The notes below the pieces were generated by a model. That model was not told the origin of the DNA. It saw only the letters and a program-made list of their open reading frames with translations, and made no database searches. A stretch of 60,524 nt of DNA, filler included, from Theionarchaea archaeon (GTDB taxonomy: Archaea > Methanobacteriota_B > Thermococci > Methanofastidiosales > SZ-28-30): the NCBI GenBank assembly GCA_018992565.1. It is 5 parts of 5 records of this genome, joined end to end, with 100 filler letters (N's around TTAATTAATTAA, not from the genome) between each part and the next. Parts side by side here need not be neighbours in the genome. Positions count along the whole stretch, not along the records: positions 1 to 23,587 come from JACVGW010000039.1; 4 more parts are not named here. The stretch is one strand, 5' to 3'. Shown one piece after another: positions 3,974 through 23,687 of this stretch. Numbering within the stretch: position 1 is the stretch's first letter; each line of letters opens with the position of its first letter. Both the position numbers and the translations under genes were made by a program.

Positions 3974-4322
3974 TCAGGTGAATGCAGATGCCAGCTTCAT
4001 CAATGCACTCATATCTCCTTCAATGCGAATTTTTCCCTGCATCATCGCCATCATGGCGTTAAGCTCCTTTTTCATGATACCATCAATCACATCCACAGTA
4101 GTATATACTGAAATGTCTGCTGAATCGTCTTTCTCCGGGAGCGGCTTCTTGTTCAGTTCCTCCACTGTGCCATCTTCGCCAACTTTAATGAGGTAGGCTT
4201 TCTCCACATCTTCCAGGCAGAGCTGAAACGTCTTCCTCTGTCCTTTGTTGGAATCTGCCATGCTGTTCAGCTTTTCTTTGAACTTCTCCATGAGAGAATC
4301 AGCATATTCTTCCTTATCCATT
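3974..4322 (-). CDS. SCP2 sterol/lipid-binding domain protein
   Basis: ADISV...LNAMMAMMQGKIRIEGDMSALMKL SCP2 signature. GGTGA SD precedes MDKEE (start approximate). Confidence 0.85.
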
Positions 4323-4639
4323 GGATCACCTTCTGATGTACCTTCAATGCATTCCATATATAAGGTTTCTCACTCATTACCCCTGCTGCTTACTGGAGAC
4401 CTGCCCATCGATGGAGGTCTCTCTTCTGGAAATCTTCAAGAAAAAAAAAGAAAGGAAGCTGGATCTCGGAACGGATTTACCTGACATGCTGGCCCGAGGC
4501 TCATGGGCCACCACAACCTATACCTTTATAATATTGGCGTATCTATCAATATTGCGGTCACGGATTCACGCACAATTTGACAACCAGTATAAACATAAGT
4601 CGGCCTATATATGGTAAAAATGCGTGGAAAGGATGAATC

Positions 4640-5737
4640 ATGGATTCGAGATTAAGAATCAATGAAAAAGAAGCCAGAATGCTGAACCTAATTGGCAGAG
4701 ATGCCAGTTTATCCCATGGGGAGATTGCGAAGATGGTACGGTACAGAAGAGTGACTACTGTTTCTAAAAAGCTAAAAAAGTTCAAGGAAAAGAATATTCT
4801 ACGAGGACCATACTATGATTTGAACCTCGCTGGCGTTGGTGAGAATCAGATCTACAATGTGTATTCCACGATATCTTTTGCTCCTGAAGACATTGACTTT
4901 ATCTTCCAGGTTCTCAAGGAGATTCCGGGGATCAGGTGGATATTTCCGTCTACCGATTTGGATAGGTTTTTTGCCTATTTCCAGGTCAATCACTACAAGC
5001 ACATTGGAGGGCTCTTGAAGGCACTTCATAGGAAGAGGTTAATACAGTACAGCCTCTTCTCCTCACGGTTTAAATGGTTGAAGAGAAATCCAGATTTCTT
5101 TGGTAGCTCGGTCTCCTCTTCGGAGAACTTGCTTGCAGATTGCAGATTGCCTGACATCTCATACCAGAAAGTTCCTCCGTCAACAAAGTGGAATGAAACA
5201 GACCTGACTGTTATGCAGTACCTGCAGGTTCAGTCCGACAGTCCGATGGAGATAGCCAGACAGGAGTACTCACAGCATAGAAACCTCTTAACCTACAACC
5301 AAATCAAGTACAGTATCCAGAAAATAAGAAACTACGGTATCATCGAATCAGTTGACTATCATATCGCCCCTCTGCCCCGGGAAAAGTGTTTTACTGTGCT
5401 TCTCCTATTATCAGCAGAGAAGAGAGGGACCATTCTGCGGATAATGGAGAATTTCGGGAAAGGGTGCAGACTTCACAAAACCTGCACGCTGGCGGGAAGA
5501 ACAGGGCTCATGTTCTTGTGGATCATGCCTGAGGCTGCCACGAACCTTCTGAGCACATTTGATGATATCGATGGACTGCGGTGCAGGATGTACTTCCTAC
5601 GGAGCCACGACAGTGCATATCTGTGCAGTTTTTCCTTTGAGTCTTCTACATTCAACACTGACGAACAGAGATGGGAGTATCCATATCACGAAACTCAGAA
5701 GAAGATAGAAGATCGGATAAAAAAAAGGGAAAGGTGA
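4640..5737 (+). CDS. wHTH/Lrp-AsnC-like transcriptional regulator, paralog A
   Basis: N-terminal HTH (DASLSHGEIAKMV...TVSKKLKKF) and a second HTH-like segment (ETDLTVMQYL). Clear paralog of 6081..7181. Confidence 0.7.
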   Translation: MDSRLRINEKEARMLNLIGRDASLSHGEIAKMVRYRRVTTVSKKLKKFKEKNILRGPYYDLNLAGVGENQIYNVYSTISFAPEDIDFIFQVLKEIPGIRWIFPSTDLDRFFAYFQVNHYKHIGGLLKALHRKRLIQYSLFSSRFKWLKRNPDFFGSSVSSSENLLADCRLPDISYQKVPPSTKWNETDLTVMQYLQVQSDSPMEIARQEYSQHRNLLTYNQIKYSIQKIRNYGIIESVDYHIAPLPREKCFTVLLLLSAEKRGTILRIMENFGKGCRLHKTCTLAGRTGLMFLWIMPEAATNLLSTFDDIDGLRCRMYFLRSHDSAYLCSFSFESSTFNTDEQRWEYPYHETQKKIEDRIKKRER

Positions 5738-5745
5738 GAAAATGA

Positions 5746-5940
5746 CTACTTCGGATGCTCAGGATCACTCCCGGGAACTGAGTTCGGAGTAATCGGTAGA
5801 TTGCCGCCTTCGTAGTCCACCACCCAACTGATGAGTGGTGCAGTCCCACCCGCATGTGAGGCAACTCCAAGTGATATCCCCCCAAGGGTGCCAATTGTCA
5901 AGAGGGCGATCAGCACCATTGCCATTCTTGCTGACTTCAT
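5746..5940 (-). CDS. Small secreted Pro/Gly-rich peptide (64 aa)
   Basis: GGAGGT SD before ATG 5940. MKSARM + hydrophobic stretch + ASHA looks like a signal peptide. C-terminus is PITPNSVPGSDPEHPK. Confidence 0.75.
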   Translation of the reverse strand: MKSARMAMVLIALLTIGTLGGISLGVASHAGGTAPLISWVVDYEGGNLPITPNSVPGSDPEHPK

Positions 5941-6080
5941 TCCATAACCTCCATTTCTGGTATAGGCAGGAAAAGATAAATACAAATATTTTTTCCTGAG
6001 GAGGATTTAAAAAGATGGACAGCCATGTATACAATCAAGGGGAGAAACTGGATTGAAATCCCATAAAGGAACGGTCAAAC

Positions 6081-7181
6081 ATGTTTATCAACAAGGATAT
6101 TGGAAATATTGATAAGATTATCCTGAACAAGCTGGGAAAAAACGCAGATACTCCTATTACTGACCTTCTCACAAGCACTCAGTACAGAAGGAAGTCTTCT
6201 GTCTATAACAGAATTCGATACCTGAGAAGTGAAAAGTATCTCTTCGGTCCTTACTTTGATATTAACTACAATGCTATTGGCACGAATAAGCTGTATTCAG
6301 TTTTTGTGTTTGCTCACTACGATCCTCTGTACAGGGCCCCTGTCCTTGAGGCCCTGAAGGAGATCAATTGCTGGACGATGATTTATCCAGTAAGGACTGC
6401 TGATGCCTATTTGGGTATTTACCGGTGCAACAACTGGAACTATATTGCCACTCTCATCGGCCTCATGGATCGATGGGGATGGCTGAAAGAATACAGTGTT
6501 CACAAGTCCGAGCATCGCTGGGTTTTGACCAACCCTGATTTTTTTGGCCGTTTTATACCTCCTCCTGACTACCAGGTTACCCGGAAAGGTGAGCTTCCTC
6601 ATTTCCAGTATGAAGATGTCGAACCATGTATCGAATATACTGAGATTGATCTCACTGTCTTGAAGTACGTGTCCAGGAAAACGTGCCGGCTGACAGAAAT
6701 GCGAGATCTTGAATATCGCTATCATGGTGTGCAACTGAAATATCATGATCTCAAGCGAAGCTTTGATAAGTTGAGAGACAGCAATGTCCTTCTTGAAAAG
6801 AACTTCATCATTCTCCCTCTCCCTCTGGATATGTCTTCTCTCTTCTTTCTGATTACGCAGGGAAAAAACTTTGGATCACATCTGGACACTATTGCCGGAT
6901 TTGGAGAAGGATTACGACTACACAAGACGCTTATTGTGGTAGGAAAAGAGATAATTTCCTATTTTTTGGCACATCCGCTGCTTGAAGGAAAAATTCTTGG
7001 AATAATTGAAAATAACCTGGACAGTGCCAAACTCTACGGAATAAAGACATATCCTTCACATGAATTATCAATGCAATCTTTGAATGATAATTATTTTGAT
7101 GTGGAAAGCCAGAGATGGGTTTTTCCTTATTCTGAGTTCAAAGAAGGGCTGAAAGAAATAAAAGAAAAAAGAGGAGAGTAG
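6081..7181 (+). CDS. wHTH/Lrp-AsnC-like transcriptional regulator, paralog B
   Basis: Shares GPYxDxN, NPDFFG, DLTVxxY, PLP, FGxGxRLHKT and QRWxxPY motifs with 4640..5737. Confidence 0.7.
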   Translation: MFINKDIGNIDKIILNKLGKNADTPITDLLTSTQYRRKSSVYNRIRYLRSEKYLFGPYFDINYNAIGTNKLYSVFVFAHYDPLYRAPVLEALKEINCWTMIYPVRTADAYLGIYRCNNWNYIATLIGLMDRWGWLKEYSVHKSEHRWVLTNPDFFGRFIPPPDYQVTRKGELPHFQYEDVEPCIEYTEIDLTVLKYVSRKTCRLTEMRDLEYRYHGVQLKYHDLKRSFDKLRDSNVLLEKNFIILPLPLDMSSLFFLITQGKNFGSHLDTIAGFGEGLRLHKTLIVVGKEIISYFLAHPLLEGKILGIIENNLDSAKLYGIKTYPSHELSMQSLNDNYFDVESQRWVFPYSEFKEGLKEIKEKRGE

Positions 7182-7212
7182 TGTGGAACCAGGTCTCTGC
7201 CGCTGATTGTTC

Positions 7213-7308
7213 TCATCCCGGGTAGGGGACGTCTCCAGGCACAGGCCCTCCACAGGGGGCTGCCCAGGGAGCTTCGATGACGAGAGAGGGTGTGTATGTC
7301 CAACCCAT
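7213..7308 (-). CDS. Unannotated 31-aa peptide MGWTYTPSLVIEAPWAAPCGGPVPGDVPYPG
   Basis: GAGGTGA SD 5 nt before ATG and a TTTTAAG TATA-like element near 7364-7371. Tail resembles the 5746..5940 peptide. Confidence 0.65.
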   Translation of the reverse strand: MGWTYTPSLVIEAPWAAPCGGPVPGDVPYPG

Positions 7309-7383
7309 TTGAATCACCTCGTCATCTTATTATCCTTTTGGACTACATTATAGATTTCGTTTGTCTTAAAAGGTGATTTATTG

Positions 7384-7420
7384 TCTCAATGCATGAGAAA
7401 GGCAGTCTCGAAATCTGAGA
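7384..7420. promoter_or_regulatory. Two tandem palindromic sites TCTC(A/G)-N5-TGAGA
   Basis: tctca-atgca-tgaga (7384-7398) and tctcg-aaatc-tgaga (7406-7420), 22-bp period, just upstream of the peptide gene's promoter. Confidence 0.5.
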
Positions 7421-8002
7421 ATCAAAGAAGAGCAGAAATATTACCAAAACCAAGAGAGTGGGTTCTAGCTATGCAGAACCTCTTCCGTTCTCTGTGAGTA
7501 CTAAGGATTGAAAGATTCTGTAATCTACTGGCCCAGTACTCAAGAGCAAGGTGATTCGGTACGCTACCGGGGAAGAAAGAATGGAAAATCAAAAAAGAGT
7601 GAAAAATTTGAGAGTGCTGATACCCATTCAATTGGGCTCAGAAAATGGGGTGCTCCGGCTCTTGTGCCTGGCTACTTCATGGTCGAGTCACCCATGCTAC
7701 AAGAAAGAGCTGCTTTCCTTGGAGGTCTCTGCCCTCATCTCATTCCTGTCAACCTGGATGAGAGCGCTCGTGTGTGATCGGCCGGCGGTCCTTCTACTGC
7801 GTAGGTAGCTGCCAGAAGCATTCATGTCCACAATGATGGCTCATAGACTTGAGGGATGTCAGCTCCAAGAGAAAGACAGATACGAGAATGGGGTCGTCCA
7901 CAGCCTCCGCATTCTACAGGGATTCCAGAAGTATTCTCGAGCTCTTCTGTGACTTTCTCAGGCTCCAGCCCCCTGCAACCAAGATAAGGTTCTGAACATC
8001 AG

Positions 8003-8374
8003 TTAGGGCTGCTTCCCCAGAAAGAAATCCACAATCTCCGTGGCGAATTGAGGAGCGAATTTGTGACTCGCCAGAATTCTCTTCATCTCACGTCCAAGAG
8101 AACCATCATCATCTGGAGAGTCTATTGTCTCCCCCATCTCCAGAAAGATGATATAGAATGCATGAATAACAGACGGAGCCATGATAGAATCCTTCCCCCC
8201 AAATCTCACTATGGGGCCTTTTAGATCCAGATCTGGGCTCTCTGTTTTTTCCACGAATTCCTCGAAGATTTCCCAGGCAATGTCAAAGTACAGTGCTTCT
8301 TCTGGGTACTTCTTTTTCATGTACTCCTTTGAGCTCCTGTATATCTCATCCTTGTATGGTATTTCCATGACCAT
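8003..8374 (-). CDS. Hypothetical acidic helical protein
   Basis: 123-aa ORF starting 3 nt after the stop of the wHTH-TPR gene, with a G-rich SD. Confidence 0.65.
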   Translation of the reverse strand: MVMEIPYKDEIYRSSKEYMKKKYPEEALYFDIAWEIFEEFVEKTESPDLDLKGPIVRFGGKDSIMAPSVIHAFYIIFLEMGETIDSPDDDGSLGREMKRILASHKFAPQFATEIVDFFLGKQP

Positions 8375-8377
8375 AGT

Positions 8378-9739
8378 CTAACCCCCCTGGGCAGTTCTTG
8401 ATTGCTCTAATAGAAATTCCGCCAGTTCTTTATAAGCTTTTTTGATCTCTTCTGTGGTCCCAAATTCCCTAGCCTTTCTATAGCAGCCTTCCAGATGTTC
8501 CTGCTTCTCTTTTCTATCGATCTCTCTGAGGTTATGTTCCACTTTTTGAATGTCAGGTGTATGCTCCAGCGTTTGATACATTTTCAGGCTTTCTTCCCAG
8601 AGCTCTCGTGCCATGGAGTAGTCCTCTTTCCGGGCATAACACAGCCCACAGTTGTACAGAGAAGAAGCACGCTTATACCCGTCATCCCCAGACAAAGCTG
8701 ATGCATTCTCAAAAGCCTGAAGTGCACCATCTATCTCATCATTCATGTAGAGGCAGGCTCCCAGGTCATTGAGGACATCTGACAGCAGCATAGTATCTCC
8801 CACGTTTTGCGCTATTTTGTGGCACTTTTTGTAGTATTCTTCAGCAACACCGTATCGTCGCAGTTTGAAGGCTATGTTTCCCAACCCCTTCAGGGCGTAT
8901 GCACGACCTCTGTTGTCTTCAACCTCCTCACACAGAGATTCCATGTGCAAGTACTCCCTTTCTGCATCCTCGAGGTTTCCTTTCAATTCTAGGATATTTG
9001 CCCTGGTGAAAAGAACCCAGGCCATCACCTTCTTGTCCAGACCAGCAGGTCCCGTTCTGAGAGAGTGAAGGAGTGCTTCTGTGTCCTGTTTTTCCTTTTC
9101 ATCCTGAATTTCATAGACTCTCTTAAGACATTCATCCCATTCCTCTGAGGTACGCAGTGTGTGCGTAGCTTCATCTTTTGCCATGCCAAAGACCTCCCTC
9201 CCCTTTTCTGACAGTTGATACGGGCTTTGTTCCTGATAGACTGTCTTCTTGTACTCAATATATCCTTTCATCCTCAGCTTCTGGAGATAACGATAGATAT
9301 TTGCCCTGGAAAGGCCTTTCTCGTCAGTAAGGGTTTTTTGAAGATAGTTCGAAATCTCTTCTGTTGTCACTGGTTGGTTGATTCCCACTGCGCAGATGAT
9401 GTGAAACATGAGTTCCCAGGGCTTCACTCGTAGTTCGCTGATTATTTCTTGGAGCTTCTCAAGGATTTCACCTTTCAACTCGTCAGGGACTGTTGCTGTT
9501 TTTCTTCTACTATCCCTAAACAGGTTCAGTCCTTTGTTGGTAATGGAATAGAACTTCTGGCCTTCTTTGCTCACCTTTCGCAGATATTCTCTCATGGTGA
9601 GCTTTTGCGAAGCGGAATCAGCACCTTTCCCAAACCCCGTGAGTTGTCGTTCCAGGATTCTCCTTTCTCTTGTCCGGGCAAAGTTGAGGATCTCAAACAT
9701 GAGTTCTGCCTCTTCTGCATTGCCATTATTTGCGCTCAT
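8378..9739 (-). CDS. Winged-helix + TPR repeat regulator
   Basis: wHTH (SRANIYRYLQKLRMKGYIE...YQLSEKG) preceded by a similar segment (FYSITNKG), then several TPRs (AYALKGLGNIAF, LNDLGACLY, LYNCGLCYAR). AGGAG SD precedes MSANN. Confidence 0.8.
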   Translation of the reverse strand: MSANNGNAEEAELMFEILNFARTRERRILERQLTGFGKGADSASQKLTMREYLRKVSKEGQKFYSITNKGLNLFRDSRRKTATVPDELKGEILEKLQEIISELRVKPWELMFHIICAVGINQPVTTEEISNYLQKTLTDEKGLSRANIYRYLQKLRMKGYIEYKKTVYQEQSPYQLSEKGREVFGMAKDEATHTLRTSEEWDECLKRVYEIQDEKEKQDTEALLHSLRTGPAGLDKKVMAWVLFTRANILELKGNLEDAEREYLHMESLCEEVEDNRGRAYALKGLGNIAFKLRRYGVAEEYYKKCHKIAQNVGDTMLLSDVLNDLGACLYMNDEIDGALQAFENASALSGDDGYKRASSLYNCGLCYARKEDYSMARELWEESLKMYQTLEHTPDIQKVEHNLREIDRKEKQEHLEGCYRKAREFGTTEEIKKAYKELAEFLLEQSRTAQGG

Positions 9740-10200
9740 ACTCCTGTATGTATTCAGCAGTCTAATATGGTTATTGGGATGTCGCAAAAAATGGGACGTT
9801 ATCATCCAGTTCAGTGGATGGAGATGCAGGGGTTGCAGCTTTCATATGTTGGTCTTCTGTCTTAATGATCGATTTGTGATTCTAATGATTGACATAACCT
9901 TGAGTTGATATAGGCTTTTATCTATGTCTCTAAGAATCTGATTGAGATTCTAAAAAAGATGCTCACAGTCTCATACGATCCTAGAAGTTCTTGAGATACT
10001 TACTTGATCCAAAGAAGGCTATCCTGGGTGATCTTAACTTTCATAAAAGGTATTAAAAGATCTTAAACATTTTCGAGGCTTACGTGGTGGCTATTCATAT
10101 TGGAGTGATACTATGAACAATGAAAGGCTTTTTATGGTTATTGATGGATGATTTTCTTGCGAATTTCCGGATAAGTACTAAACAAGAATATCCTCAACTC

Positions 10201-12246: not shown

Positions 12247-12504
12247 CTAACCTGTCATCCCGGAGATAACCTACCTTCAATTGGAAGAATTTGAGGGATA
12301 TGGGAACAGGATGAGCTTCTGCGTTTTGAATTTTCGTGATTGCAACAGGATTTGGGTTTTCTATGATTTTGAATTGTATTGAAAAATCCTAAACGTTTAT
12401 AATTCTCTATAAAGGATTTTACCTGATCTGAAACAAAATGAACAATAAAAGGGTTTTTATAGTGCAATAGGGCAGATAACAAAAATGTAAAGGAGGTGAA
12501 AGAA

Positions 12505-13647
12505 ATGAAGAAGATTGCAGCCGGAATCTTAGTGATATGCCTTCTCCTTTCTGTTTCTGGAGTCTTTGCAGCATCCCCTGAAAGGGTTATTATTGTATTC
12601 CATGATAGCCCTGACGTCAACCTGGTGGGACAGTATGGACAGGTACACAAGACGTTCCATCTGATACCTGCAGTGGTAGCTACTTTGCCAGACCAGGCAA
12701 TGAAAGCCTTATCTAAGAACCCTCACGTCAAGTATATCCAGCCAGACTATGTCACACAGTACGTTGCGCCCTTGCAGATGAGTATATCTGCTGAGCCTTT
12801 GGCTCAAGTACTGCCTTGGGGAGTGGACCGGATTGATGCGGAACTGGCCTGGAGTACCTCTACGGGAGCTGGTGTAAAGGTAGCCATTGTGGACACAGGA
12901 ATTGACAGGGATCACCCTGACCTGGTGGCAAATATCAAAGGCGGATTTAATGCCATTGCACCCAGGGGACGATACAAGGATCCCAGTGACTTTGATGATG
13001 ACCACGGCCATGGTACACATTGTGCAGGCATTGTGGCAGCAGTGAACAACGACATTGGAGTGGTAGGAGTTGCTCCCGATGCATGGCTCTACGGTGTCAA
13101 AGTGTTGAGCAAGAGTGGAACTGGCCAGACCAGTGACTGCATTGAGGGCATCCAGTGGTGTGCAGACAACGGGATGGATGTTATATCCATGAGCTGGGGT
13201 TCCTCGACATATGATCAAGCTCTCAATGACGCCTGTCAGGCCGCCTGGGATGCAGGATGTGTCCTGGTATCCTCTGCAGGAAACAGTGGTGTTGAAACTC
13301 CAGACGGGTACCCTTCAGCATACTCTTCAGTCATGGCTATATCTGCCACTGATTCCAGTGACAACATTGCCTCATGGAGCAACTACGGAGATGAGATTGA
13401 ACTCGGGGCCCCTGGTGTGTCAGTATATTCAACCTACATGGGCGGTGAATATGCTACCATGTCTGGTACGTCTATGGCATGCCCCCATGTATCAGGTGTG
13501 GCAGCCCTCGTTCTGGCAGCTCATCCAGCCTACAGCAACCAGCAGGTCAGGCAAACCTTGTGGAATACAGCAGAAGACATAGGTGCACCCGGCTGGGACA
13601 TCTACTTCGGGTACGGGCTGGTAGACGCTCAAGCAGCAGTAGTCTAA
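12505..13647 (+). CDS. Secreted subtilisin-like S8 serine protease with I9 propeptide
   Basis: Catalytic motifs VDTGID, HGTHCAG and GTSMACPH. AGGAGGTGA SD upstream and T-rich terminator at about 13661-13684. Confidence 0.97.
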   Translation: MKKIAAGILVICLLLSVSGVFAASPERVIIVFHDSPDVNLVGQYGQVHKTFHLIPAVVATLPDQAMKALSKNPHVKYIQPDYVTQYVAPLQMSISAEPLAQVLPWGVDRIDAELAWSTSTGAGVKVAIVDTGIDRDHPDLVANIKGGFNAIAPRGRYKDPSDFDDDHGHGTHCAGIVAAVNNDIGVVGVAPDAWLYGVKVLSKSGTGQTSDCIEGIQWCADNGMDVISMSWGSSTYDQALNDACQAAWDAGCVLVSSAGNSGVETPDGYPSAYSSVMAISATDSSDNIASWSNYGDEIELGAPGVSVYSTYMGGEYATMSGTSMACPHVSGVAALVLAAHPAYSNQQVRQTLWNTAEDIGAPGWDIYFGYGLVDAQAAVV

Positions 13648-19026: not shown

Positions 19027-22000
19027 GTGATCCCCTCCAGTACCTCTTTCACATAGTGTGCAGTGATGCCACCTGCTAAACAGAAGTCTTCAGGTGTGCC
19101 TTCATTCACCACCATTCCTCCTTCAGGTCCACCCCCTGGACCCAATTCGATCAACCAGTCACATGATGCCAGTACATGCGGATTATGCTCAATGACAACT
19201 ACAGTATGGCCAGCTTCCACTAAATGCTGCAATACTTCAATCAACCTACTGACATCCTCCATATGCTGGCCAACAGTGGGTTCATCCAGTATGTATAAAG
19301 AACCCTGAGGTGTTCTCCCACACAATTCTCTGGCAACCTTAAGTCTCTGAGCTTCTCCTCCAGATAGGCTATACCCTGGCTGGTGTAACACCAAATATCC
19401 CAGTCCAACCTGCTGAGCTGCTTTCAGCAAGCGGGCAATCCTCTCATGGTTCTCAAATAAAGGATACACTTCATCAATCGTGAGATTACATAATGCCGGG
19501 AGTGTCAATCCCTTGATCTTCACATCCCATGCTTCAGGTGAATATCCTGTCCCATTACATGCATCACAGGGGGAATACACATTTGGTAAGAATCCCATGT
19601 CCATTCGTATAGTACCCCTCCCGTTACAGACNNNNNNNNNNNNNNNNNNNNNNNNNNNNNNNNNNNNNNNNNNNNNNNNNNNNNNNNNNNNNNNNNNNNN
19701 NNNNNNNNNNNNNNNNNNNNNNNNNNNNNNNCTCCCAATGGTATATGAACATCAATATTCTTGAGGTTATGCTGGCGTGCGCCGCGAATATGCATCCAGT
19801 TTCTGGGTGATCTTCTCTTTCCAGGGTGTATCGTACACTCTCCCCGCAGCCACTTCCCTGTTACAGTTTCTGCCCGGGCAATATCTGATACCGAGCCTTC
19901 AGCCACAATATGCCCGCCCTCTACTCCAGCACCGGGACCTATGTCGATAATGTGGTCTGCCTTTCTAATGATCACGGGGTCATGTTCAACCACAATGACG
20001 GTATTCCCTTCATCTCGAAGTTCCTTCAGGGCACCAACCAGGGCATTCACCTCTGACGGGTGCAGTCCACGGGAGGGTTCATCCAGGAGGACTGTTAATG
20101 AGGTTAATTTACTTCCCAGGACTCCAGCTAACGTTACCCGCTCAGCCTCTCCCGCAGAGAGGGAAGCTGAAACCCTGTTCAAGTGCAAGTATCCCAGCCC
20201 CACCTGCACCAGGAACGTGAGTCTCCTCGTGCAAGTATCCAGACTGGACCTGACTGTCCGGGATGCAGGTTCTGTTATCGTGTTCATGAGTTCTGCCAAT
20301 GCAGTTAGAGGCATCTCAGTGAGTTCATGAATGGTGTGCCCCTGTAAGGTGACTGCCAGAAACTCTGGCCGCAGCCTTCCCCCCTTACAGTGAGGGCACA
20401 CCACAGCCTCTGTGTATGTTCCACCTACATCCCAGTCACGAATCCAGCCGAAAAATCCAGGGAACCTATGCTTGCGTACAGAGGATTGGCCTTTTCTGTT
20501 TACAAAAGTCACTGTCAAGGGCTCGGGATCGCCGAAAAGAAATGCATGCTGCGCTTTTTCACTCATCTGGTTCCAAGGAGTAGACTGTGGGTCAAAGTCA
20601 TATCTTTCAGCCAGGGCCTGGACCATGTAGTATCCTGAATTGAAGGGTTTACACAGGAATCCCTTGGGGAAAAACCCTGGCGAGTACATAGCCCCCCTGC
20701 AAATGGGATTATCTGGATTCACAATTAATTTCTGTGGGTTGGGCTTCTGTATGGTGCCCACCCCCTGGCAGGTGGGACATGCTGAGAACCAGTTGGAAAA
20801 TAAGAAGGCACTGGATTTTTCAATGGGAGCTGCAGCTCCGCACTGGGGGCATTTCCAGGTGGTGGTCCGATTCATTGAAGAGCCGCACTCCATGCACGTT
20901 CTCTCCCCCAGAACCGAGAGTAGTACTGTGAGATGGTGCAGAATCTCAGTATCAGATCCCACGGTGGCGCGTCTATTGAATTCACGGGGTCCTGCCCTAA
21001 CAGATACAGCTACTCCAAGCCCTTTGACCGATTTCACAGGAGCTTCAGGACCTTCTTTAACGGATTGCCTTTCATACATGGACAGACTTTCCAGGAATCG
21101 CCTTCTGGCTTCAGCTTCCAGGACATCTGTGATTAGAGAGGATTTACCCGATCCCGATACCCCCGTAATGACGGTAAAGACATTCTTTGGTATGGTGACA
21201 GTCACAGACTTTAAATTGTGTGCAGAAGCCTCAGTAATGATGATATCTCTTGATATGTCGGGCGGTGGGTGAGCAGAAGGAGTTGTAGGTTCTAATTCTG
21301 TTTGAAGTGCTCTGGCTGTCAGTGAACGCTCTTCTGATAACAGATCGTCAGGTGGCCCTGCAAAGAGCAGTTCTCCTCCCTTGGGTCCAGCTCCAGGTCC
21401 CAGGTCAATAATCCAATCGGCTGCGCGCATAATATCTGTATTGTGCTCAATTACCACGACCGTTCCGCCAGCACGGACTAACCGATCCAGGACTACGAGT
21501 AGTCCAGATATGTCTTTGGGGTGCAGCCCTGTGGAGGGTTCATCCAGTATCAATAGCTTTCTGGACAAGGATTTGCTGCCCAGGTACTTGGCTAATTTGA
21601 CCCGCTGTGCCTCACCACCTGATAGCGTGGGAGAGGGCTGCCCTAACGACAGATATCCTAATCCGACATCTCGCAAGGCCTCCAGAATGCGTTTTGCCTG
21701 GGTTCTTTGTGTTGCTGAAAGGGCTTTATGAGTGAGTAAGGGACGTGCCTCGTCAATAGTCAATTTATAAAAATCAGCAATAGTCAGGCTCTTATCGCCA
21801 AAATCCACTTTTCTGCTGAGTACTTCCTCTGAGAATCGGTTTCCTTCACATCTCTCACAGGTGATCCAGGTAGAGGGGAGGTACCGCATCTTGACTTCTA
21901 CTGCCCCCATCCCCTTACAGAGGGGACACCTTCCTTCAGGGCGATTGAAGGAGAAGTGGGAAGGTGACAATTTTGTGGCGCGGGAGTAGAGTTCACGGAT

Positions 22001-23587: not shown

Positions 23588-23687
23588 NNNNNNNNNNNNN
23601 NNNNNNNNNNNNNNNNNNNNNNNNNNNNNNNTTAATTAATTAANNNNNNNNNNNNNNNNNNNNNNNNNNNNNNNNNNNNNNNNNNNN
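23588..23687. other. Artificial contig linker
   Basis: N-flanked TTAATTAATTAA six-frame stop linker. Confidence 1.

Follow-up and report, generated by a model that had tools for sequence, protein, structure and literature searches.

Why should two related regulator-like genes in an archaeal genome each be followed, on the opposite strand, by a gene for a tiny proline- and glycine-rich peptide? We address this question for a stretch of 60,524 nucleotides (nt), the window, from the metagenome-assembled genome of an uncultured, sediment-dwelling Theionarchaea archaeon (GCA_018992565.1; 2.8 Mb in 154 contigs, 88% complete). It holds two such regulator-peptide pairs, here called cassettes: Reg1 with Pep1 and Reg2 with Pep2. 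Gram-positive bacteria are well known to communicate by peptides, and Lrp/AsnC regulators are the commonest archaeal transcription factors. A sequence-only reading of the same DNA had proposed that the cassettes are diverged receptor-pheromone pairs. The explanation that we prefer, at somewhat less than an even chance, is that each is a cognate regulator-peptide feedback module. The genes and control regions of the two cassettes are as follows (aa, amino acids; ORF, open reading frame).

4640..5737, + strand: Reg1, an ORF of 365 aa encoding a one-chain, tandem Lrp/AsnC-like protein with two modules, each a winged helix-turn-helix (wHTH) and a RAM domain.
5746..5940, - strand: Pep1, a pre-peptide of 64 aa that has a hydrophobic N-terminal signal or anchor, then a variable stretch, and ends in an acidic, Pro-rich tail with an invariant DPEHP.
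5941..6080, no strand: the divergent control region of Pep1 and Reg2, with invariant blocks, a TATA-like A/T box and an AT-rich inverted repeat.
6081..7181, + strand: Reg2, an ORF of 366 aa, a paralogue of Reg1 with the same tandem layout.
7213..7308, - strand: Pep2, 31 aa, with no export signal and a Pro/Gly-rich C-terminal tail.
7309..7430, - strand: the promoter and putative operator region of Pep2, with two related palindromic sites and a TATA-like box.

The gene arrangement described in the sequence-only reading is borne out. Pep1 stops 8 nt from the Reg1 stop and Pep2 ends 31 nt from that of Reg2, both are convergent with their regulators, and both have a Shine-Dalgarno (SD) site, which is GGAGG 7 nt before the Pep1 ATG at 5940 and a GAGGTGAT-type site before the Pep2 ATG at 7308. 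Two further regulator paralogues in the host genome are each convergent with a small ORF, 31-32 aa long and preceded by an SD site. All four peptides are kept in the sister species with identical tails, and a third species of the genus keeps diverged forms of Pep1 and Pep2 plus one further cassette. Frame, length, SD site and tail are all retained beside regulators that are only 64-68% identical. A scan of metagenomes adds 15 loci, one of which ends too early to be judged for a peptide. Seven hold the whole Reg1-Pep1-Reg2-Pep2 module (L058, L059, L061, L062, L063, L065 and L066); since L058/L059 and L062/L063 are near-identical pairs, these represent five distinct modules.

Both small ORFs are real genes under purifying selection, and the tail is the most constrained part of the peptides. 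Differences between the host and sister species fall mostly at third codon positions. Counted over four orthologue pairs, changes in the last 12 codons number 12 synonymous and 1 non-synonymous (proportions per site pS 0.34 and pN 0.009), and the remaining codons of the same pairs give pS 0.39 and pN 0.15. The Pep2 tail is identical in the two species, with synonymous changes only. Codon-level conservation, which the sequence-only reading had made decisive for its proposal, is thus found as a strong synonymous excess that is strongest in the last 12 codons. Control frames show similar pN and pS, and in four of the five every gene tested has stops. The antisense frame rc1, which shares third codon positions with the coding frame, retains the codon-position pattern with 0-1 stops, so rc1 alone does not discriminate. 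Among Pep1 orthologues, pN/pS ranges from 0.27 to 0.76 and is below 1 in 28 of 28 pairs.

Database searches extend both families. A Pep1 profile retrieves 23 proteins of 58-75 aa, all annotated 'hypothetical' and all from the same archaeal clade; a protein Atlas search with Pep1 returned nothing above its bar. In 1.84 billion representatives, the profile of Pep2-like peptides has nine matches, of which seven, 26-47 aa long, belong to the family. We also considered assembled contigs from two small RNA-library runs, X19 and X20. A metatranscriptome contig of 210 nt (depth 23, 0 differences) lies on 5732-5941, which is the Pep1 ORF; because RNA contigs give no strand, ends or level, and because RNA libraries may hold DNA, this lends weak support to Pep1 expression. 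Another contig, on 4577-4797, spans the Reg1 start. No contig of X19 or X20 falls on Pep2, Reg2 or most of Reg1, a result that is uninformative on expression in two runs of this size.

That the small ORFs are chance open frames in the 3' regions of the regulators is effectively excluded. They are very short, with the Pep2-type genes at the limit of gene callers, and the similarity of the Pep1 and Pep2 tails is not significant by itself (see below). Against chance stand the conserved frame, length, SD site and tail, the synonymous excess, the 23 Pep1 members in the protein database and the RNA-library contig on Pep1.

The two peptide families share an architecture in which a variable front is followed by about ten conserved C-terminal residues, often preceded by one or two glycines. 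In Pep1, the N-terminal 17-mer is hydrophobic (Kyte-Doolittle (KD) value 2.2), in keeping with the signal peptide assigned in the sequence-only reading, and such a 17-mer is found in all 23 family members (KD 2.08-2.91). The remainder of the protein is acidic and rich in Pro and Gly, with 4-11 Asp and Glu against 0-2 Lys and Arg in 23 of 23 members, and the five-residue DPEHP motif of the tail is invariant across the family. The Pep2 N-terminal 17-mer has a KD value of 0.74 and no hydrophobic segment. Indeed, an export-type hydrophobic segment occurs in none of 14 Pep2-like peptides, for which the maximum is 1.45 and none reaches KD 1.6. The Pep2 family as a whole ranges from 26 to 58 aa. The tail unit occurs twice in tandem in three precursors of different lineages (the L065 Pep2 at L065:5071-5244 on the - strand, P0074 and P0080), as would be expected if the tail is the working piece.

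The tails of Pep1 and Pep2 were quoted correctly in the sequence-only reading, and the pattern that they have in common is present as described, whereas its homology is less firm. When the two families are aligned with hhalign, only the tail aligns, and an E-value of 0.056 over 11 columns suggests a common origin of Pep1 and Pep2 but does not show it. A loose regular expression for the tail gave 22 matches over the whole genome, mostly noise, and missed Pep2. Separately, a Pep2-like tail is encoded at L054:4949-5107 on the + strand (genome G033, contig C26), between a methyltransferase-like and an acyl-CoA-dehydrogenase-like gene and with no regulator beside it; this may be an orphan or decaying peptide gene.

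The larger partners are, in the predicted structural model, one-chain pseudo-dimers of the Lrp/AsnC fold. Reg1 and Reg2 are paralogues, as previously proposed (27% identity over 353 residues, E 2e-51). The AF2 model of Reg1 (pLDDT 93.9, pTM 0.90) places a wHTH and then a RAM domain twice in one chain, and Reg2 likewise models confidently with this layout, so that the defining order of the Lrp/AsnC family, a wHTH followed by the beta-alpha-beta-beta-alpha-beta fold of RAM, is found twice. The chain therefore has two modules in 365 aa, unlike the single module of about 150 aa in typical Lrp/AsnC proteins, also called feast/famine regulatory proteins (FFRP), which work as dimers or larger oligomers. 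A profile built from 40 homologues matches the archaeal proteins PH1519 and LrpA (E 3e-6, residues 6-130), and many single Lrp/AsnC regulators match either half of the model (VIA Z about 8, as over residues 6-153; Foldseek probability 1.0). The Lrp-like character assigned in the sequence-only reading is therefore supported by sequence profile, model and structural matches alike. The matches of curated models are all below threshold: HTH_Crp_2 scores 17.5 bits (cut-off 27), HTH_24 14.4 (21.9) and LrpA 18.2 (250), and Reg2 has no Pfam match at all. The family has about ten genes in the host genome, turns up in 10 of the 34 genomes searched from the order (E 1e-10), and comprises 52 proteins in a collection of 5.8 billion, in which all named members come from the same archaeal clade; these named homologues place the host among the Theionarchaea / Methanofastidiosia.

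Only one known structure matches the whole chain, that of the enzyme NirDL (VIA Z 15.4 over 289 residues, root-mean-square deviation 5.5 Å; Foldseek E 2e-10), at 11-14% identity and a TM of about 0.5. This precedent leaves room for an enzymatic or scaffold role of the tandem-Lrp proteins. One such role would arise if the small ORFs encoded precursors of a ribosomally synthesised and post-translationally modified peptide (RiPP), with the tandem Lrp-like protein as a peptide-binding or peptide-modifying partner, in the manner of the NirDL and AhbAB enzymes. The margin of the NirDL match over the next-best matches, at Z about 8-9, fits this possibility, as do precursors with a variable front and a conserved core that is sometimes duplicated, and the presence of Cys, Ser and Thr in many cores. 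We nevertheless consider it highly improbable. The cores have no constant residue class, be it Cys or another; no conserved maturase or other enzyme gene lies beside the cassettes in the contexts examined; the identity to NirDL is low and Pfam offers only two weak HTH models; the sequence profiles match true Lrp regulators; and about ten paralogues per genome suit regulators better. The sequence evidence leans towards a regulatory role for these proteins.

If the peptides belong with their regulators, the two should be found together across the regulator tree. In a maximum-likelihood tree of 51 regulator rows, the rows with Pep2 form one clade of 8 (support 100/100), the rows with Pep2-like peptides form another of 5 (95/86), and the rows with Pep1 form a clade of 10 together with one row that lacks downstream DNA (100/99). 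A Pep2 orthologue follows each of the 8 Reg2 orthologues, which are 64-86% identical. Within these three peptide clades, every regulator with downstream sequence has its peptide. A fourth peptide type, of 26 aa, occurs in two rows from another family of the order (99/94), and the regulator-plus-convergent-peptide layout is probably present in this second family as well. The placement of each peptide type within a single regulator clade agrees with the earlier suggestion that the cassettes were duplicated and diverged as units. It indicates that regulator and peptide are co-inherited through duplications, and it is co-inheritance, not co-evolution, that the tree shows. Regulator and peptide are the only constant genes across the neighbourhoods examined, with no other enzyme gene conserved.

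Members of the regulator family without such a peptide can have other neighbours. A separate regulator orthogroup in the metagenome loci stands in a housekeeping context and has no peptide. In the host, one peptide-less paralogue is followed by a protein of 120 aa with a signal peptide and a Cys-rich C-terminus (L006:1673-2035, + strand, contig C111), and another by a membrane protein of 251 aa with a Pro/Thr/His hexapeptide repeat (L007, about 2190-2945, - strand, contig C32). In a family of the order with smaller genomes (G001-G003), two regulators lie in tandem, and the gene after the second one, in the same orientation, encodes a conserved protein of 52-63 aa (L015:2687-2878, + strand, and the corresponding genes of L016 and L018), which has four Cys pairs and a zinc-ribbon-like appearance.

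The control regions of the peptide genes are conserved too. The 140 nt between Pep1 and Reg2 have a mean column identity of 78% in an alignment of seven genomes, with an invariant block of 18-19 nt, and contain an inverted repeat at 5967-5978 and 5987-5998 whose 12-nt arms are 92% complementary. Since Pep1 is divergent from Reg2 and shares this conserved promoter region with it, Reg1-Pep1 is not the sole possible pairing. At the other peptide gene, about 110 nt 5' of Pep2 are highly conserved with the sister species, and the rest of 7400-8000 is not. Two palindromic 17-mers in direct repeat, at 7383-7399 and 7405-7421, stand 22 bp apart in this region. Perfect TCAGA-N-TCTGA palindromes occur near -90 in five of the eight Pep2 orthologues, and a further site frequently follows at a distance of about 21 bp. 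A looser pattern of the type TCTCA-N5-TGAGA occurs 16 times in the genome, where about 9 occurrences are expected, and three of the sites sit 5' of the three Pep2-type genes; because the pattern was derived from two of these three sites, only the third is an independent match. An operator pattern with a 2-nt spacer was also tried and gave no relevant match in the window, the true spacing being 1 nt or 5 nt. We suggest that some DNA-binding protein acts at these palindromic sites, which we regard as candidate operators. They are also the sole, indirect indication of the sequence-specific DNA binding, tuned by a small effector at the RAM domain, that is typical of Lrp/AsnC regulators.

These control regions also fit a plainer explanation. 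The tandem-Lrp proteins may simply control the small genes, or be co-regulated with them, while the peptides act elsewhere and never touch the regulator. The peptides could, for instance, be acidic molecules, secreted or displayed on the cell surface, with a role in binding metals or surfaces or in acting on other cells. Around their conserved control region, Pep1 and Reg2 have the arrangement of a classical divergent pair, candidate operators lie 5' of the Pep2 genes, the acidic Pep1 tail offers His, Asp and Glu, with the charge bias seen in every member, and amino acids are the known ligands of RAM domains in the matched structures. We regard this local regulation as a serious rival, though a rather unlikely one. 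It leaves unexplained why each peptide type has stayed with one regulator clade through several duplications, why the regulator-peptide pair and not any effector gene is the sole constant of the neighbourhood, and how Pep2-type peptides, which have no export signal, would act outside the cell.

The explanation that we tentatively favour, a cognate feedback module, would work as follows. One member of each cassette would be a one-chain, pseudo-dimeric transcription factor of the Lrp/AsnC type, and the other a pre-peptide gene whose conserved C-terminal ten or so residues, rich in Pro, Gly and Asp, would be the working part. The regulator is predicted to bind the palindromic operators upstream of the peptide gene, and the peptide, or a tail released from it by processing, would act back on the regulator through contact with its RAM domains, which would give each pair a private loop. 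In Pep1, the N-terminal hydrophobic segment could insert into or cross the membrane and so place the tail on the outer side; for Pep2-type peptides an intracellular action is predicted, barring an exporter of another kind.

Several observations weigh against this interpretation. The peptide labels on the tree were assigned by hand from ORF listings, and relatives share labels. The grounds for refutation named in the sequence-only reading do not hold, as regulators of the three peptide clades keep a neighbouring peptide and codon-level conservation is strong; yet 24 of the 51 rows of the wider regulator family, about half, have no such peptide. Even inside the peptide-bearing clade, a well-supported sister orthogroup has a peptide in none of its six members. 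The convergent orientation means that regulator and peptide have no promoter in common, and they could be linked simply because one controls its neighbour, or through co-transfer. Neither regulator reaches the curated Pfam or NCBIfam cut-offs, the best whole-chain structural match is to an enzyme and not to a regulator, and the RAM ligands in the matched solved structures are all single amino acids, with no peptide-bound Lrp protein among them. Finally, the three Pep2-type genes of the host are also the three that lie beside paralogues of a second DNA-binding-type protein, one with tetratricopeptide repeats (TPR), so that the assignment of the candidate operators is ambiguous. The TPR gene next to the cassettes of the window and its companion are the following.

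8003..8374, - strand: companion of the wHTH+TPR gene, 123 aa, with no Pfam or NCBIfam match.
8378..9805, - strand: wHTH+TPR protein, 475 aa, with Pfam TPR_12, TPR_2 and TPR_1 repeats and an HTH_34/PadR-like domain.

The wHTH+TPR gene lies about 1.07 kb upstream of Pep2, in the same orientation. A homologue of the 123-aa protein adjoins all seven wHTH+TPR genes examined, either upstream or downstream, and the order swaps between paralogues. The host and the sister species have three such pairs each, every one beside a Pep2-type cassette and co-directional with the peptide gene. In calling the cassettes a system on a non-TPR scaffold, the sequence-only reading was right that the constant partner has an Lrp fold, and it overlooked the wHTH+TPR protein beside all three Pep2-type cassettes.

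The wHTH+TPR protein is thus a possible alternative peptide receptor. It would take this part in signalling of the RRNPP type, with the wHTH+TPR protein as the receptor whose TPR groove recognises a released and exported C-terminal tail and the tandem-Lrp protein as a second regulator of the locus. The pairing of three wHTH+TPR paralogues with three adjacent, co-directional Pep2-type peptides, repeated in the sister species, is what such signalling would lead one to expect, and a conserved, sometimes duplicated C-terminal tail suits a processed signal. The protein model, with a pLDDT of 65 overall, is good only in the repeat region; there the TPR domain models well and resembles the peptide-binding proteins LGN and KLC, its nearest folds. 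These structural matches are generic, however: Rap appears at rank 43 of the structural search, and the only PDB sequences matched by the wHTH+TPR profile were LGN and TPR proteins that are generic or designed. Several Opp-type binding proteins are encoded in the host genome, which is permissive for peptide uptake.

The distribution of the wHTH+TPR genes does not follow that of the cassettes. The third species has a single wHTH+TPR pair, sited apart from the cassettes, and the three cassettes examined there keep regulator and peptide without a TPR gene. No wHTH+TPR homologue was found in the 15 metagenome loci at E 1e-5. Within the class, the family occurs in 4 of 133 genomes and is confined to the genus apart from one weak match, whereas the peptides and tandem-Lrp proteins are more widespread. 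A diverged TPR protein with a 122-aa homologue of the companion was seen upstream of one metagenome module (L066:6-1264), which hints that the link between TPR pair and cassette is older than the genus. Between Pep2 and the TPR operon lie about 600-700 nt of poorly conserved spacer, and Pep2 has its own conserved promoter, apart from that operon. An RNA-library contig (depth 3.2) maps to 7709-7884 in the spacer between Pep2 and the 123-aa gene, where there is neither a conserved ORF nor an Rfam family. The host genome, 88% complete, yielded no Peptidase_C39 exporter, a result that is likewise permissive. Taken together with the lack of an export signal in Pep2-type peptides, this makes 'pheromone' a tentative label, and we judge RRNPP-style signalling very unlikely.

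The regulator-peptide pairing, which we prefer to read as a feedback module, may nevertheless be a new kind of circuit, possibly one used for signalling. Cell-to-cell signalling on either scaffold, Lrp or TPR, is doubtful on present evidence. The form of it closest to the original proposal would be the first archaeal peptide-based cell-to-cell signalling, built of diversifying receptor-pheromone pairs in which a tandem Lrp/AsnC protein, and not a TPR protein, senses the released C-terminal decapeptide of the pre-peptide encoded beside it, with Pep1 exported by its signal sequence and Pep2-type peptides by another route; we think this unlikely.

Library scans identify a DUF460 protein, an SCP2 protein, the wHTH+TPR protein, a subtilase and others as neighbours of the cassettes. 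The subtilase (Peptidase_S8, E 3e-67) lies at 12496-13647 on the + strand, 2.7 kb past the wHTH+TPR gene. An Rfam scan of 4000-10000 gave as its sole output a sub-threshold match resembling a small nucleolar RNA. Runs of N occupy 19632-19731, 23588-23687 and positions further on, and only 1-23587 is contiguous with the cassettes.

A double-Lrp family that travels with tiny peptide genes through several duplications is a concrete and testable candidate. Its study could reveal a new class of RAM-domain ligand, a new form of small-protein control over archaeal transcription, or archaeal peptide signalling. Even the least ambitious interpretation adds two families of genuine genes below 70 aa, one of them (Pep2, 26-58 aa) at the limit of gene callers, to a clade known only from metagenomes. 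No culture is needed to synthesise and assay the candidate operators and the cognate pairs.

How do the cassettes compare with known systems? Full-text literature searches, as far as titles and abstract openings go, gave no archaeal peptide-signalling or regulator-peptide system like these, in agreement with the sequence-only reading. In PMC12700828, the passages that mention 'archaea' are reference-list entries. The nearest relatives by family are the Lrp/AsnC proteins, such as PH1519/FL11, Pyrococcus LrpA and Sulfolobus ST1022, which have the same wHTH+RAM module, are archaeal and occur as many paralogues per genome. The proteins described here differ in carrying two modules per chain, a built-in dimer, and in falling below the curated thresholds, and the ligands of the matched structures are free amino acids. 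Titles and abstract openings from the same searches describe no partner peptide gene for Lrp/AsnC regulators.

The siroheme decarboxylases NirDL and AhbA-AhbB likewise combine two Lrp-like modules in tandem as one unit. They differ in being enzymes of haem d1 and haem synthesis, and the regulator is likened to them by fold alone; no tetrapyrrole or haem-pathway genes occur among the cassette neighbours examined. RiPP clusters have a conserved maturase as neighbour, whereas only regulator and peptide are constant here. With the general class of small-protein modulators encoded beside their targets, the cassettes share a conserved peptide of less than 70 aa that is co-inherited with one neighbouring protein, and the titles and abstract openings contain no described example paired with an Lrp-type regulator.

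The closest parallel in layout is with the RRNPP cassettes of Firmicutes and phages (Rap-Phr, NprR-NprX, PlcR-PapR, AimR-AimP and Rgg-SHP). The differences lie in the constant partner, which has an Lrp and not a TPR fold, in the convergent orientation and in the archaeal host. A TPR protein is adjacent in only two of the three species; its HTH is a winged helix and not of the XRE type, and its structure shows no specific link to Rap or Rgg. The likeness lies in a small ORF adjoining a receptor-type or regulator gene, in a conserved C-terminal part that is the likely active piece, in many diverged pairs per genome and, for Pep1, possibly in an export-type N-terminus. The Pep2-type peptides presumably resemble SHP and ComS in having no export segment.

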